From the IMG/VR virus record IMGVR_UViG_3300028888_000002: a DNA stretch of 64,000 nt. One strand, given 5' to 3'. Origin of the DNA: a virus (Duplodnaviria; Caudoviricetes). Every line of letters begins with the position of its first letter. Position 1 is the stretch's first letter. A program made the position numbers and the translations under genes. Positions 53,950-63,172 of this stretch are shown piece after piece. The notes below the pieces were generated by a model. The model was not told where the DNA came from and did not search any database. It saw only the letters and a list, made by a program, of their open reading frames with translations.

Positions 53950-54495
53950 CTATACCTTGTTGTAATGTTCCCAAATATCACGGGCGAAATCCACCCACTT
54001 GTTGTAGGTCATTGACTTCGGGGCATACGGTTTATACAGGGTTTCAAAAAACGGTTCCCAACCCTTTTTAGCTATTACACGGACTGCCGACGAAGACAGG
54101 TCACGCAGGGGTGCAGGACTAGGGATAAAGATTGTCGGGTATTCACCGTGGGAAATGTTATAGTTGTAGCCCGCCATAGGCATTTCCACGTCCAGGTCTA
54201 TTGCGGAGCGAACGCCTCGGATTAGAACGATACGGTCCGCAACGTCGGTCATAGCCATAAGTTCGTCGCAGTAGTCACAGATAAACCCGCCCGTGTGTTC
54301 GGGCTTAATCCAGGTTGCGTCCTGGACCCATTGGGCACGTTTTTCTTTGGGGACGCTGTATTCCTTCTGCGGGTTGTCCGCTAAAACGATTTGAACCATA
54401 TCGTCGCCAAAGATATGCTTTGCCGTTTCAATGACTGCGATATGCCCTGCGTGAATAGGGTTGAAACTTCCTGCATAGATAGCTAGTGTGTTCAC
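53950..54495 (-). CDS. coaD: phosphopantetheine adenylyltransferase
   Basis: AIYAGSFNPIHAGH (HxGH), IRGVRSAIDLDVEMPMAGYN, LSSSAVR match PPAT motifs. Confidence 0.85.
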   Translation of the reverse strand: MNTLAIYAGSFNPIHAGHIAVIETAKHIFGDDMVQIVLADNPQKEYSVPKEKRAQWVQDATWIKPEHTGGFICDYCDELMAMTDVADRIVLIRGVRSAIDLDVEMPMAGYNYNISHGEYPTIFIPSPAPLRDLSSSAVRVIAKKGWEPFFETLYKPYAPKSMTYNKWVDFARDIWEHYNKV

Positions 54496-55859
54496 TTATT
54501 TGCTCCTAAAATAAGATTGATAACCTGTTCCAAACGCATAACGTCCTGGTCCGTGAGTTTGTCCCACGGGACTGCGGGTTCCACTTGAACAATCTTGTCG
54601 CCCTGCTTCTCAATGGACGGGTAAGCTGCGAAGTCCGAAGCGATACGAACGTCCTGGAAATAAATTGAACTGATAATGAAATCCTGGACCTTGAAAGTTC
54701 CCGCAGGGAATTTCGCAGTAAGGTATCGGTAGAACTTCAACAGGTTCCAACGTGGAATGCCCATATAGTCAATGTTGGCGTTATGCCATTCCGTATCGCC
54801 ACGCAAGCGGACCTTATACTGCCCGATTTCCAACGGGTGCAGGGGTTCGTTTTCCTTGTCAAGACTGTAATCAAACGTGTGCATAACAGTGTTGAAGTTG
54901 TTAGTGTCAAGCAATTCGCCCTTACCGTCCGCAAGCCACATAGCGACTTCCCAATGCGTAGGAACATCGGATTGCGGAAGCGTAAACGGTGCTTTCGGGT
55001 GCGGACCGTGGTGCATTTTTTCAGTGCTGTTAGCGATAAAGTCTTGCGTTCTTTTGGCTGACATTCGTTCTAATTCCTTTTCTGTGAATAATCCCTTTAT
55101 ATGGTTTGCAGCGTCGTCAATTTGTTTGGACGTAATGCCCCGCCACGGACAATACGTTCCCTTTGCAAGCAGCACCAGGTTTTCGTCTGCTGCGACTAAT
55201 CCCTTGTGGCTTTCGCACATAACAAGAATGCGGTCGTGGACCTGGTTGCCATAGTCGGGGACGGTTGTTTCCGTTTTGTCACGGACAATGTATTCGTCCC
55301 CTAAAATGGAAACCAACCTCGCATAATACTTGTCAAGATTCCAGGTGTTAGCTGTGGCGGTGTCAAGCCAACGCATAGCACACCTAACAGCGTAATAAAC
55401 GTCCCTGTCAATGACACGCTCCCAGTGAATGAAGTTGTCCCCGTATTCGTTACGCAAGCACAAGATATGCTCCGTAGCCAGGATTATGCAGTTTTGCCCG
55501 CTTGTCAGTTTTTCGTTAGACTGCTTGTCAACACAGATAACCAGGAGGGTCGTGGGAAGTTCTTCAATGCTTTCAGCCTTGATAGCTGTTTTTACATAGT
55601 CCTTGAACTTCTTAAAATTCCACGGTGGTTCCGCTAATCCGTTTGCAACTGCGATAACGTCGTGACCGAACATTTCCTTTGAAATGTTGGGCGTAAAGGC
55701 GATACCTTCGGGAACGTCGCTGCCGTGAATGCAGCGGAGCGAATTGGTCTGCGGAATGCTTGCATAGATTTTTCCGTAAGTGGCTTTGTCGTTGCACTCA
55801 ACGAAGAAATCGTCTTCGTCCGTTTGAATAATGCAGTATTTGTAATTGTAAGAAGGCAC
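54492..55859 (-). CDS. large hypothetical protein
   Basis: 455-aa ORF, GTG start. Confidence 0.8.
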   Translation of the reverse strand: MPSYNYKYCIIQTDEDDFFVECNDKATYGKIYASIPQTNSLRCIHGSDVPEGIAFTPNISKEMFGHDVIAVANGLAEPPWNFKKFKDYVKTAIKAESIEELPTTLLVICVDKQSNEKLTSGQNCIILATEHILCLRNEYGDNFIHWERVIDRDVYYAVRCAMRWLDTATANTWNLDKYYARLVSILGDEYIVRDKTETTVPDYGNQVHDRILVMCESHKGLVAADENLVLLAKGTYCPWRGITSKQIDDAANHIKGLFTEKELERMSAKRTQDFIANSTEKMHHGPHPKAPFTLPQSDVPTHWEVAMWLADGKGELLDTNNFNTVMHTFDYSLDKENEPLHPLEIGQYKVRLRGDTEWHNANIDYMGIPRWNLLKFYRYLTAKFPAGTFKVQDFIISSIYFQDVRIASDFAAYPSIEKQGDKIVQVEPAVPWDKLTDQDVMRLEQVINLILGANK

Positions 55860-56704: not shown

Positions 56705-57178
56705 CTAGAAATCCCCCTCGGCAACTTGCAGGCACTTGAAGCCCAATTCCCTCCATCTATTAACCATAGAATTTCTGTCTTCCAGGATAAACGCCACCTT
56801 GTAATCGGGGTTGCGTTGCAGGTATTCGTTAAGCAGTTCGGGCTTAACTTCGGTGTCGTGACGCTTGTCACCGTCGTCACGGTAAAGGATAGGCAGACCC
56901 ATAACACCGCCACGGTTGTAGCGGAAATTCGGCATATTGTCACGGAGCCATTGACGAGTAGCGTCATTGGTGCTTCTGCGACGACCCGTGCAGAAAATGA
57001 TACCGTAAGAGTCCGAGAGTGCTTCTACAAGCCTTACCATTTCGGTAATGGGCTTGTCCTGCCCGCAGGCTGCGTAGAAGCCGTCCCAATCTTTCGGCTC
57101 TTTGGAAAGATACTTCGCTGCACGTTCCGAAGCGTCGGTAATCGTGCCGTCAATGTCAACTACTACAATACTTCTCAT
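56705..57178 (-). CDS. HAD-family phosphatase (PseT/polynucleotide 3'-phosphatase-like)
   Basis: VVDIDGT, FCTGR, RDDGDKRHDTEVK, LEDRNSMVNRWRELG...QVAEGDF. Confidence 0.85.
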   Translation of the reverse strand: MRSIVVVDIDGTITDASERAAKYLSKEPKDWDGFYAACGQDKPITEMVRLVEALSDSYGIIFCTGRRRSTNDATRQWLRDNMPNFRYNRGGVMGLPILYRDDGDKRHDTEVKPELLNEYLQRNPDYKVAFILEDRNSMVNRWRELGFKCLQVAEGDF

Positions 57179-57180
57179 AG

Positions 57181-57492
57181 TTATTCCTTTTTGGATTGAT
57201 TGGTTAATTGTTCCATAGCTTCTTCAAGGGACAGGAACGGTCCGAACTCAAGGTTCAAATCCTTGCAGTGCTGCTCCGTTGCGTCGTGAAGCGATTTTAC
57301 CAGGTTGTTGCATTGGTCCCTGTTGTGAGCCTGCACAATGAACCTGTCAACGCATATAGACGATACAACGCTGATTTTTGGAGCCAGGGCGTTCTTTATG
57401 AACGTCCACATCCATTTGAGCAGCGGACGGTTCGCAGCCATAACCATAAAGGTCAATTCGGATTCGTCCGTAATAATGTTGAAGCCCCGCAT
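57181..57492 (-). CDS. hypothetical protein
   Basis: Tiled ORF. Confidence 0.65.
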   Translation of the reverse strand: MRGFNIITDESELTFMVMAANRPLLKWMWTFIKNALAPKISVVSSICVDRFIVQAHNRDQCNNLVKSLHDATEQHCKDLNLEFGPFLSLEEAMEQLTNQSKKE

Positions 57493-57493
57493 A

Positions 57494-57805
57494 CTATCCC
57501 CGCTTCCAATAGTTCTTCTTGAATTTGGAAAGTTTGGCTTTGGCGTTCTTGTGGGCGACGGCTGCTTCCTGGTCCAAACCCTGCAAGGCAAGTTCAAAGG
57601 CTTCACGGGTGGTTTCATACAGGTTGCAGGTGCCTTCAAGCCAAACAAGTTCCTGGTTGAACTTGATACGGTAATTTCGTATGCAGTAGTGTTCGGGGTT
57701 GCGACGGTGCAACTTAATAAGGATTTTCACAACACGGTCGTGGAAGACGGTCACGGCTTCTTCTACTTCTGCGTAGCGGTCAAGGGTAAGAATGGGTTTA
57801 ATCAT
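57494..57805 (-). CDS. hypothetical protein
   Basis: AAGGA RBS. Confidence 0.7.
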   Translation of the reverse strand: MIKPILTLDRYAEVEEAVTVFHDRVVKILIKLHRRNPEHYCIRNYRIKFNQELVWLEGTCNLYETTREAFELALQGLDQEAAVAHKNAKAKLSKFKKNYWKRG

Positions 57806-61460: not shown

Positions 61461-61742
61461 CTACGAAAGTGCGAGAGTAGGCGTTTCCTGCGGGAGCGTC
61501 GGGGTTTCAGCAGGAACCGTCGTCGCTTCCGTGTTTTCCTGGCTGTGCTTCTTCTTATAGAGCCAGGTGCTATACGACATACCGTGAATGCGTTTGAACT
61601 TGTCAAGCCATTTGCGTTGCCGTGTAATGGGCTTTTCTGTGGGAGGGTTAAGGACTATGCCATACCTGGCTAGGTCCTTTTCTGCGTGTTCGGCTATCCG
61701 CTGTTGGAGTAGCTTGTAGAAATTTACGGGTTCGTCTGCCAT
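61461..61742 (-). CDS. hypothetical protein
   Basis: AAGGA RBS; promoter-like site at 61775-61803. Confidence 0.65.
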   Translation of the reverse strand: MADEPVNFYKLLQQRIAEHAEKDLARYGIVLNPPTEKPITRQRKWLDKFKRIHGMSYSTWLYKKKHSQENTEATTVPAETPTLPQETPTLALS

Positions 61743-61836
61743 ATCGTGTTTTCCTTGTCGGGAGTTTATAATAAATATATAACAATTTACTATAATCTGC
61801 CAACAGGTAATCCACAAAATGCTGTCAAAAATGTAG

Positions 61837-61923
61837 CGGAGCGGGCAGGATTCGGACCTGCGGTGAGCAAGACCCACGGTTCTTTAGCAAAGAACTGCCA
61901 TAGACCAACTAGACGACCGCTCC
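61837..61923 (-). tRNA. tRNA-Ser(GCT)
   Basis: GGAGCGG/CCGCTCC acceptor, GTTCT-TTGCTAA-AGAAC anticodon arm, long variable arm. Confidence 0.9.
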
Positions 61924-61934
61924 AAAAATGTTAG

Positions 61935-62017
61935 TGCCGATTGCAGGATTCGGACCTACGAAGACTTGCGTCGGGTGATTTACAGTCACCTGCCTTTGAC
62001 CGCTAGGCTAAATCGGC
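61935..62017 (-). tRNA. tRNA-Tyr(GTA)
   Basis: GGTGA-CTGTAAA-TCACC anticodon arm, long variable arm. Confidence 0.9.
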
Positions 62018-62025
62018 ATTGTTAG

Positions 62026-62099
62026 CTCTACCGCCACGATTCGGACGTGGAACTTCCCGATTAACAGTCGGGCGTTCTACCAGGTTGAACTACGGCAGA
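62026..62099 (-). tRNA. tRNA-Asn(GTT)
   Basis: CCCGA-CTGTTAA-TCGGG anticodon arm. Confidence 0.9.
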
Positions 62100-62105
62100 A
62101 TAATT

Positions 62106-62180
62106 CGGGGAAAGTGTGGGAGTCGGACCCACCTCACACATACCGTGATATGTGCAGTTCACCACGACGCTAAAGTTCCC
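62106..62180 (-). pseudogene. degenerate tRNA-like element
   Basis: T-arm GTGGG-TCCGACT-CCCAC intact; acceptor and D stems weak; anticodon loop 6 or 8 nt. Confidence 0.6.
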
Positions 62181-62193
62181 AAAAATGTTTTCG

Positions 62194-62302
62194 TGGACAC
62201 CCTCCGATTTGAACGGAGCGTTCCGTAATACTTTCGCAGCGTCCTATCCTTTCTTTTGGCGTTTTGCGATACCTTACGGCAGGTCCCGTAGCCACGGTGC
62301 CC
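62194..62302 (-). ncRNA. 109-nt tRNA-like RNA with Ala identity (G3.U70, A73) and an extended stem in place of the anticodon arm
   Basis: GGGCACC/GGTGTCC-A acceptor; CTCCG-TTCAAAT-CGGAG T-arm; CCGTAA/TTACGG and TCGCA/TGCGA stems. Confidence 0.7.
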
Positions 62303-62313
62303 AAAATGTTTCG

Positions 62314-62386
62314 TGGAGCGTATCGGACTTGAACCGATGACCTCCCGCTTGCAGGGCGGGCGTTCTACCAACTGAACTAACGTCCC
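62314..62386 (-). tRNA. tRNA-Ala(TGC)
   Basis: CCCGC-CCTGCAA-GCGGG anticodon arm, G3.U70. Confidence 0.85.
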
Positions 62387-62390
62387 ATAG

Positions 62391-62463
62391 TAGTTCCATA
62401 GGGCTTTGAACCCTAGTCTTTAGGTTGAAAACCTAATGTCCTAGACCGCTAGACGATGGAACC
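62391..62463 (-). tRNA. tRNA-Glu(TTC)
   Basis: TTAGG-TTTTCAA-CCTAA anticodon arm. Confidence 0.9.
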
Positions 62464-62475
62464 ATAATTTGTTCG

Positions 62476-62550
62476 TGTGACGGGGTGGATTTGAACCACC
62501 GACACGAGGATTTTCAGTCCCCTGCTCTACCAGGCTGAAGCTACCGCCAC
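62476..62550 (-). tRNA. tRNA-Phe(GAA)
   Basis: GGGGA-CTGAAAA-TCCTC anticodon arm. Confidence 0.9.
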
Positions 62551-62559
62551 ATAAAGGCT

Positions 62560-62593
62560 AAACAAAAAACCACGTTGCTTGTCGCAGCGTGGC
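62560..62593 (-). terminator. attenuator terminator upstream of the tRNA operon
   Basis: GCCACGCTGC-GACAA-GCAACGTGGT followed by TTTTTGTTT. Confidence 0.85.
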
Positions 62594-62626
62594 TTCCTGT
62601 TTAACCCTTGAAAAACACTTGGAATA

Positions 62627-62713
62627 TCACCACGACTGCGAATACGCAAAATAGGCTTCGGCAAAACTAGCCTCGGCTTCAAAATAAAAGTTATTTGCGT
62701 AATTCTTGTTCAT
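62627..62713 (-). CDS. 28-aa leader peptide MNKNYANNFYFEAEASFAEAYFAYSQSW (putative tRNA-operon attenuator peptide)
   Basis: AGGA RBS; lies between promoter and terminator; composition matches downstream tRNAs; below the ORF track cut-off. Confidence 0.85.
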   Translation of the reverse strand: MNKNYANNFYFEAEASFAEAYFAYSQSW

Positions 62714-62736
62714 AGTGATTTTCCTATACGTCGCCT

Positions 62737-62765
62737 AATATAGATTATTCGGGAACCCGTGTCAA
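62737..62765 (-). promoter_or_regulatory. tRNA-operon promoter
   Basis: TTGACA (62765-62760)-17-TATATT (62742-62737), with class 2 AATAATCTATATT context. Confidence 0.9.
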
Positions 62766-62785
62766 GGGGTCGGTCAAAATTATTT

Positions 62786-63172
62786 TCAGCCGTCCGTCTT
62801 GTCGTCTAGCTTCGCCTTGATAGCCTGCAACGCTTGACCTTTCGTGTAGTTCAACAAAGTATCTGTCTTTTTAAGATAACCGCCAAACTTGTTCAACATA
62901 CAGTCCGTGCATTCTTTCGCAAACTTTGACAGGCACCGCATTGGTATCGTCCCGTCGTCGTCCAACCAATCTATGAGTGCGACGGCACATTCTTCAAAGA
63001 GCCTGTGCTTATACGTTGTTGCAAGCATATTCGGGTCAATGTAGTTGTATCGGGACCACACGGCACCGATTATCATACGGACCGTGCGGACCTTTACTAT
63101 GCGTGTATAAATCGGACCGTATCGCCAATCCGCTCCCGTAAGCACCCATTCGTTTTCTGTCGTGAAATCCAT
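62786..63172 (-). CDS. hypothetical protein
   Basis: GAGGA RBS. Confidence 0.7.
   Translation of the reverse strand: MDFTTENEWVLTGADWRYGPIYTRIVKVRTVRMIIGAVWSRYNYIDPNMLATTYKHRLFEECAVALIDWLDDDGTIPMRCLSKFAKECTDCMLNKFGGYLKKTDTLLNYTKGQALQAIKAKLDDKTDG

Follow-up and report, generated by a model that had tools for sequence, protein, structure and literature searches.

Phage tRNA clusters are usually annotated only for the genes that tRNA finders call. The tRNA gene cluster of phage T4 also yields two small stable RNAs, RNAC (species 1, 139 nt) and RNAD (species 2, 119 nt), whose function has been unknown for decades (PMC3014915, PMC9697503). Mycobacteriophage DS6A carries a transfer-messenger RNA (tmRNA) consisting of the tRNA-like domain (TLD) only and lacking a coding sequence (tmRNA Website tmID 11587), which is known from a single report (PMC4131195; PMC11915505). 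According to a passage of PMC4131195 that cites Mao et al. 2009, such a TLD-only molecule inhibits tmRNA, perhaps via SmpB titration (see also PMC11915505). Lak megaphages encode intron-containing tRNAs (Devoto et al. 2019; PMC6784885). Here, we describe element A, an RNA gene of a known but little-described kind; these T4, DS6A, and Lak RNAs are its closest described counterparts. It lies in a 64,000-nt stretch of the IMG/VR virus record IMGVR_UViG_3300028888_000002 (the window), whose source is an uncultured jumbo phage of the ruminant gut. Element A is a tRNA-like RNA gene without an anticodon, placed among six true tRNA genes; judged by the pattern of its sequence variation, it is a real, selected RNA gene where present, not debris. 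Distinctive features of A are its alanine-type TLD-like chassis, its conserved rod, its clean presence/absence variants, and an unusual operon leader.

Structure of element A

We list the parts of the gene below, with element position p corresponding to window coordinate 62303 - p.

62194..62302, minus strand: element A, anticodon-less tRNA-like RNA gene, 109 nt, delimited by sequence, folds, and covariance model R1
62296..62302, minus strand: 5' strand of the acceptor stem, GGGCACC, positions 1-7, pairing with 62195-62201
62194..62201, minus strand: 3' strand of the acceptor stem, GGUGUCC (positions 102-108, holding U70), and discriminator A (62194)
62280..62295, minus strand: D region, positions 8-23, 16 nt, reduced, with GGG in its loop
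62223..62279, minus strand: rod in the place of the anticodon arm, positions 24-80, 57 nt, with three helices and two internal loops
62202..62218, minus strand: T arm CUCCG-UUCAAAU-CGGAG, positions 85-101, a 5-bp stem with a 7-nt loop

The acceptor stem has 7 bp with G3.U70 and is followed by A73; CCA is not encoded, as is also the case for the six true tRNAs. A 4-bp D stem is absent, with at most G10-C21 and G11-C20 pairing. From base to tip, the rod comprises helix CCGUAA/UUACGG, internal loop GGUA/AAGUA, helix UCGCA/UGCGA, internal loop AAA/C, helix CGCC/GG(A)CG, and a 13-nt apical loop, AAAAGAAAGGAUA, of which 12/13 nt are purines. Acceptor and rod are separated by 16 nt, and rod and T arm by a 4-nt connector. 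In one diverged copy (L008, described below) the T loop reads UCCGAAU. The single-sequence fold and the RNAalifold consensus on four distinct copies give the same structure, and the fold energy is unexceptional (z = -1.38). Comparing GGUA/RAGUA by eye with known internal-loop motifs (kink-turn, sarcin-ricin/loop E, 11-nt receptor, and bulge-helix-bulge), we found none that fits.

This anatomy agrees with an original prediction made from the letters of the window alone, which had described an acceptor stem of 7 bp with G3.U70 and discriminator A, a canonical T arm, no clear D stem, and an interrupted stem closed by a purine-rich loop in place of the anticodon arm; the last of these is the three-helix rod seen in both folds. 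The prediction had also given A the same spacers as the true tRNAs. The spacers of A are CGAAACATTTT before and CGAAAACATTTTT after it, similar ones follow tRNA-Tyr and tRNA-Ser, and those flanking tRNA-Ala also belong to this type; for the other tRNAs of the cluster the claim does not hold throughout.

Conservation and covariation

We reached relatives of the locus through a 93-aa gene downstream of the cluster (61461-61742), which has homologs of 55-98% identity in rumen and gut assemblies. The contigs carrying these homologs, together with JGI contig L005, make up the ~35 related loci considered here. Searches of wider collections gave little: blastn against 50,697 phage records found no homolog of A or of the adjoining element B (see below), IMG/VR held no exact or degenerate pattern match to A, the three matches in GTDB genomes were all chance, and the JGI metagenomes returned one true relative (L005) and two chance matches. 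Applied to 226 kb of related DNA, R1 matched copies of A only.

Relative to L005, element A is 99.1% identical, while the flanking protein genes are 59-81% identical (DNA), tRNA-Ala 89%, and tRNA-Asn 85%, and tRNA-Tyr has been replaced. Relative to L008, the corresponding values are 89% for A, 51-76% for the flanks, and 70-94% for the true tRNAs. On these alignments A is as conserved as the true tRNAs of the cluster, and more so than several of them, while neighboring protein genes have diverged strongly.

The changes that have occurred respect the structure. The L008 copy differs from that of the window by 12 changes, four of which form two compensated pairs: C7>U with G102>A in the acceptor (7-66 in tRNA numbering; C-G to U-A), and C45>U with G59>A in the distal helix. 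The remaining eight fall on unpaired nucleotides: three belong to the apical loop, two to the T loop, and one each to the D loop (C15>U), an internal loop (A70>G), and the connector. In L001, C35>U turns C-G into U.G, and L005 has A70>G. All pairs (27/27) are thus kept in the four distinct sequences. In a simulation of 12 random, mostly-transition substitutions, an outcome with no broken and at least two compensated pairs arose in 0.2% of 200,000 trials (p = 0.002); covariation among homologs was one of the checks that the original prediction had proposed. All five sequence types, those of both diverged lineages included, retain G3.U70 and A73. Change is unevenly distributed: the proximal rod (24-44 and 60-80) has 1/42 positions changed versus 11/67 elsewhere (Fisher p = 0.019), compared to 5/15 in the rod tip (45-59) and 3/13 in the apical loop.

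We also compared four metatranscriptome runs over 61700-62800, as assembled contigs only. From an RNA library, contig X15 (151 nt, 62163-62313, depth 2.8) follows the DNA colinearly through the whole of A, with no joint reported; since such libraries can contain DNA and contigs drop rare forms, it shows neither transcription nor the absence of splicing. Usable coverage of A was absent from the other three runs. Very high depth at 62477-62550 is attributable to tRNA-Phe of other organisms.

Comparison to known RNA families

Element A has features of several families and matches the model of none. ARAGORN makes no tRNA call on it, even with introns allowed and the threshold lowered to 80%, and its tmRNA mode finds nothing there. 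The isolated element has no match at E<=10 to Rfam RF00005 (gathering threshold 29 bits) or to RF00023 (tmRNA), and no match to RF02553 (YrlA / Y RNA); the Infernal and ARAGORN checks suggested earlier therefore return no family for A. As a positive control, RF00023 detects the TLD-only RNA of DS6A at 43.2 bits (E = 3.8e-14).

Of what makes a tRNA, A has the 7-bp acceptor and the T arm with 7-nt loop, and it lacks both a 5-bp anticodon arm with 7-nt loop (U33, anticodon, purine 37) and a 3-4-bp D stem. Of what makes a tmRNA, it has G3.U70 and A73, the T arm, a stemless D loop, and a long helix, a likeness that is architectural only. The original prediction had called A a mini tmRNA or TLD-like: the layout of acceptor, T arm, near-absent D stem, and long closed helix bears this out, whereas membership in the family does not stand. 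Its junctions likewise depart from the tmRNA type, the 4-nt connector and the 16-nt gap between acceptor and rod being nearer to tRNA than to the tmRNA model. Inspection by eye for an mRNA-like domain turned up a sole GCA-initial frame (position 36), in which a stop follows 7 sense codons in the window copy and 3 in L008; the frame falls within helices, frames of this kind are expected by chance, and we reject it as a tag reading frame.

The T4 RNAs resemble A in being non-tRNA small RNAs in line with phage tRNA genes and having tRNA-like termini, a group defined by position and shape, not by homology. On the T4 tRNA region, the best match of R1 is the 3' domain of rnaC (18.3 bits), which is tRNA-like and combines an acceptor-type stem and a long arm with a T arm whose loop reads UUCGAAU. 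However, rnaC has no sequence homology to A and has an extra 46-nt 5' domain, and its aligned stem lacks the G3.U70-type acceptor; A is shorter, with a single rod. On 35.6 kb of phage DS6A, the best match of R1 is the TLD-only gene (15.6 bits). That RNA shares with A an alanine-type acceptor, a T arm, the lack of a real D stem, a closed helix for the anticodon arm, and the absence of a message, yet it is recognizable as tmRNA by RF00023 and A is not; A differs further in its 4-nt connector before the T arm, its longer D region, and its 57-nt rod with conserved internal loops. The R1 scores on DS6A and T4 rnaC are weak and reflect common architecture, not homology.

The Lak tRNA genes are likewise from gut phages and have highly conserved, unexplained inserts in the anticodon region. 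Removal of those inserts leaves a tRNA with an assignable anticodon, whereas A allows no such solution. YrlA-type Y RNAs also combine a tRNA-like module with a long protein-binding helix. Their topology is opposite to that of A: the Ro-binding stem of YrlA is built from the two ends of the RNA, and a loop caps the acceptor-like helix, whereas the ends of A form the acceptor stem. This topology, the lack of an RF02553 match, and the absence of a TROVE family among the 105 window open reading frames (ORFs) rule out a YrlA-type identity.

A variable slot in the tRNA cluster

Most related loci with enough upstream sequence have the order Phe-Glu-Ala-[slot]-Asn-Tyr-Ser, and it is the slot that holds A. 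Its borders and second occupant in the window, followed by its contents across loci, are

62313..62386, minus strand: tRNA-Ala(UGC), directly upstream of A in every copy
62108..62180, minus strand: element B, non-canonical tRNA-like unit, 73 nt, directly after A
62025..62099, minus strand: tRNA-Asn(GUU), downstream border of the slot
Slot with A and B: the window, L001, L042, L043
Slot with A alone: L005, L008 (L010 starts inside the slot and carries the same A as L008)
Slot with a 265-aa Cys-rich ORF: L007, L009
Slot empty (7-14 nt): L013-L016, L018, L025, L026, L028, L030, L034-L036, L038
tRNA-Ser directly after tRNA-Ala: L019-L022

The tRNA-Ala/tRNA-Asn spacer of empty sites, CGAAACAT(T), is found on both sides of A. 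Since the content of the slot varies among sister phages, A is accessory cargo in a recombination-prone slot. L007 and L009 share with L008 an identical 91-aa downstream protein.

Several observations concern the slot and cluster more broadly. The Cys-rich ORF (zinc-ribbon-like, 265 aa; L007:3070-3867, L009:1440-2237) has its own AT-rich upstream region, and in both of these loci the 3' half of the adjoining tRNA-Ala also differs, as expected of co-conversion by a homing-type mobile gene (compare segB in the T4 tRNA cluster). The T4 cluster contains a homing endonuclease gene, and the slot of L007 may do so too. The operon is modular among relatives, comprising tRNA-Phe only (L031:875-950), Phe-Glu-Ala-Ser (L019-L022), six tRNAs, or six plus A, plus A and B, or plus the ORF; alleles of tRNA-Tyr and tRNA-Asn have been exchanged between otherwise close phages. 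A few genes downstream, IS605 OrfB/TnpB-type genes (Cas12f1-like_TNB) occur in L019:6044-7264, L025:5972-7243, L026:4586-5890, and L038:5330-6312, and not in the window lineage.

The copies of element B in L001, L042, and L043 match that of the window exactly, and L005 and L008 lack the unit cleanly. Element B conforms to canonical tRNA numbering apart from its anticodon arm (a 6-bp stem with a 6-nt loop, or a 5-bp stem whose 8-nt loop is AUCACGGU), a weak D stem, and a C6xC67 mismatch; in the register of the 3' trailer it has G1-C72, G2-C71, G3.U70, and discriminator C. Among Rfam families, only tRNA-Sec gives a hint, with 17.8 bits against a gathering threshold of 47. B could be a pseudo-tRNA or a tRNA with an expanded anticodon loop.

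Operon and phage setting

Sequencing runs of gut samples from sheep, cattle, goats, and pigs, belonging to 13 studies, contain near-identical copies of 61700-62800. The genetic code of the region is the standard one, and small ORFs without assigned function fill it densely. We considered an alternative code because long ORFs are few, and rejected it: the standard code gives 83% coverage by small ORFs, and no reassigned stop stands out.

On the minus strand, the order is promoter, leader ORF, terminator, tRNA-Phe, Glu, and Ala, two uncalled units, then Asn, Tyr, and Ser. The six true tRNAs are called by both ARAGORN and Rfam, and CCA is encoded in none. The control features are

62560..62765, minus strand: operon control region, holding promoter, leader ORF, and intrinsic terminator
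62765-62737, minus strand: sigma-70-type promoter TTGACA-17-TATATT
62713-62627, minus strand: leader ORF, 28 codons, peptide MNKNYANNFYFEAEASFAEAYFAYSQSW
~62593-62560, minus strand: intrinsic terminator after the leader ORF

We looked for promoters and terminators in the interior of the tRNA cluster and found none. With promoter, leader, and terminator upstream and none inside, A stands in one transcription unit with the six true tRNAs. The original prediction of a non-decoding tRNA-like RNA within a tRNA transcription unit is thereby upheld, A being conserved, free of an anticodon loop, and not called as a tRNA. In the leader peptide, 24/28 residues are the six amino acids of the operon tRNAs (N, Y, A, F, E, S), a richness that fits induction when these tRNAs run short, and the leader ORF with its terminator resembles an attenuator sensing the tRNAs of its own operon.

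The tRNA-Ala(UGC) upstream of A is itself unusual. Its anticodon loop in the window is CCUGCAA, with C32 and with C33 replacing the near-universal U33. The tRNA-Ala of L005 (9377-9450) has loop UUUGCAA and two compensated anticodon-stem pairs, and that of L008 (133-206) has CUUGCAA, that is, U33. An identical C33 anticodon arm occurs in a tRNA-like gene, missed by ARAGORN, of an unrelated low-GC IMG/VR phage (L003:565-640), the sole match to the anticodon-arm pattern of this tRNA-Ala.

Neighboring genes

Five kilobases downstream of the tRNA cluster lies a gene that is conserved in relatives:

56705..57178, minus strand: stand-alone PNKP phosphatase-domain gene, RNA-end healing (Pfam HAD_PNKP, E = 4e-29)

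The encoded protein has no recognizable kinase domain, and the 155-aa ORF upstream (57181-57648, minus strand) lacks a P-loop. A nearby 455-aa protein (54492-55859, minus strand) matches no family. Relatives keep the PNKP block beside a cytidylyltransferase-like gene, and it may represent a divergent module for RNA repair. Near the cluster of one relative lies a gene for an HD_4-family (RelA/SpoT-hydrolase-like) protein (L032:1215-1745), which may be a small alarmone hydrolase or a tRNA-end hydrolase with a bearing on toxins that target tRNAs. PHROG gave no match for the 10 window proteins tried, and Pfam matches are few among the window ORFs. The 455-aa and 155-aa neighbors found nothing in a PDB sequence search, and neither did the 455-aa protein in a search for related loci. 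Among the 105 window ORFs there is no match to the SmpB family, to the Ro60/TROVE family, or to transferases of the Fem/MurM or lipid-aminoacylation type. The neighborhood as a whole, namely the PNKP gene, the HD_4 protein of one relative, the C33 tRNA-Ala, and the leader, fits a conflict over tRNAs.

A candidate function: titration of a tRNA-directed protein

We favor, at a probability of roughly 0.55, the explanation that A is a non-decoding tRNA mimic that titrates a tRNA-directed protein in a phage-host conflict over tRNAs. Host tRNA processing would excise the transcript of A, with RNase P cutting at the 5' end and RNase Z or exonucleases forming the 3' end, and CCA would then be added. 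The half composed of acceptor and T arm would form a tRNA-Ala-type minihelix (G3.U70, A73) chargeable by alanyl-tRNA synthetase (AlaRS). Francklyn and Schimmel reportedly established in 1989 that AlaRS needs no more than G3.U70 within an acceptor helix of 7 bp, and by this rule A is probably alanine-chargeable. The length of the rod would keep A out of the ribosomal decoding site, and a protein would recognize the internal loops of the rod together with the tRNA-like elbow and acceptor end. The proximal rod, which contains two internal loops, is the best-conserved part of A and probably serves to bind a protein. A variable apical loop and the lack of a standout antisense target (the rest of the window contains two 12-mers that could pair with A, and by a rough estimate chance would give ~0.75) speak for protein binding rather than base-pairing. 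A stable look-alike co-expressed with replacement tRNAs, A would bind and titrate a tRNA-directed factor, with candidate partners being a host tRNA-targeting toxin or nuclease, or a factor that handles tRNA or tmRNA. Titration of SmpB is the most specific and most interesting sub-case, and one without homology support.

Several points weigh against this explanation. The covariation comes from one diverged lineage (L008/L010) and single-nucleotide variants, and a low-depth RNA-library contig has G105>U, which would break pair 4-105. The near-identity with L005 could partly reflect recent cassette exchange and not long purifying selection, because the cluster is a mosaic, with tRNA-Tyr replaced and tRNA-Asn shared with L001. 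Element A is dispensable, since close relatives have an empty slot or the Cys-rich ORF. No partner protein was found: L007, which lacks A, and L008, which has it, share their downstream genes, so that no partner gene is linked to A within ~3.8 kb. Finally, the processing, stability, CCA addition, and charging of A are steps that we infer.

Alternative explanations

Of the alternatives, convergence on a mini-tmRNA is the most probable, though we consider it doubtful. Element A would mimic the tmRNA TLD, bind SmpB with or without alanine, and block or re-route trans-translation, such that ribosomes stalled by tRNA shortage would not be rescued and phage proteins would stay untagged until the phage tRNAs arrive. 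The TLD architecture of A (G3.U70, A73, T arm, near-absent D stem, and long closed helix) suits this, as do the choice by R1 of the TLD-only gene as its best match in DS6A, the inhibition of tmRNA by a TLD-only molecule as stated in the passage noted above (PMC4131195), and a leader rich in the six cognate amino acids, as would fit an operon expressed when tRNAs are short. Yet RF00023 gives A nothing at E<=10 while scoring the DS6A RNA at 43.2 bits, ARAGORN in tmRNA mode is negative, the junctions are nearer to tRNA, and no SmpB-family match exists in the 105 ORFs; R1 moreover scores T4 rnaC just as well (18.3 bits), so the TLD likeness is generic. The same alanine-type end would serve an alanine carrier, charged by AlaRS and donating alanine to a transferase of the cell-wall Fem/MurM or lipid-aminoacylation type, or else soaking up AlaRS. 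A complete and conserved alanine identity set, the adjacency to tRNA-Ala in every copy, and the non-decoding shape are in keeping with it, but no such transferase appears in the 105 ORFs scanned and the strongest constraint falls on the rod, not on the acceptor end, leaving us with little credence in this role.

The remaining explanations deny A a trans-acting role of its own or make it an ordinary tRNA. A decaying duplicate of a tRNA gene (tRNA-Ala), functionless and hitch-hiking in a recently exchanged cassette, would account for the accessory distribution with many empty slots in relatives, the spacer duplicated at both sides, the mosaic of recent exchange, and the unexceptional fold energy. 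It is nonetheless improbable given 12 changes that include two compensatory pairs and none broken (p = 0.002), conservation above that of several true tRNAs in the same cluster, and retention of G3.U70 though one U>C substitution would strengthen the pair. An element acting at the DNA level or in cis (a target for recombination or for a homing endonuclease, or an RNA-processing spacer) would find a natural home in a hotspot where L007 and L009 hold the Cys-rich ORF beside an altered 3' half of tRNA-Ala, and the T4 precedent of a homing endonuclease gene in a tRNA cluster is in its favor. A DNA target, however, has no need of the compensatory changes that keep RNA helices, and the tRNA-like ends point to an excised RNA; we regard this reading as very improbable. 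An intron-bearing or otherwise matured tRNA, from which the insert is removed to give an ordinary decoding tRNA as in the Lak megaphages, seems just as remote. Phage tRNAs with enigmatic inserts are on record (PMC6784885), and the acceptor and T arms of A are tRNA-like, yet a loop of the form U33-NNN-purine is not restorable around helix CCGUAA/UUACGG, the insert is below group I intron size and lacks the bulge-helix-bulge of archaeal tRNA introns, and the D arm is defective too. The original prediction had named splicing into an ordinary tRNA as an outcome that would refute it; ARAGORN with introns of up to 120 nt and lowered thresholds gives no such solution in A.

Significance

Compensatory changes, conservation above that of its flanks, and natural presence/absence variants make A a well-supported case of a selected RNA that, by our reading of these patterns, uses the tRNA shape for a non-decoding purpose. 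Its natural variants differ mainly in the slot, which is empty or holds A, A and B, or an ORF, and they offer a ready comparison for the role of such RNAs against tRNA-targeting defenses. A bolder and tentative version, which we think unlikely as a whole, is that A is an independently evolved TLD mimic, co-switched with the replacement tRNAs by an attenuator sensing their depletion, and holding off SmpB-tmRNA rescue or a tRNA-directed toxin. If it is true, stalled phage translation would survive an attack on host tRNAs, and the operon would be a complete, phage-encoded “tRNA emergency” module.

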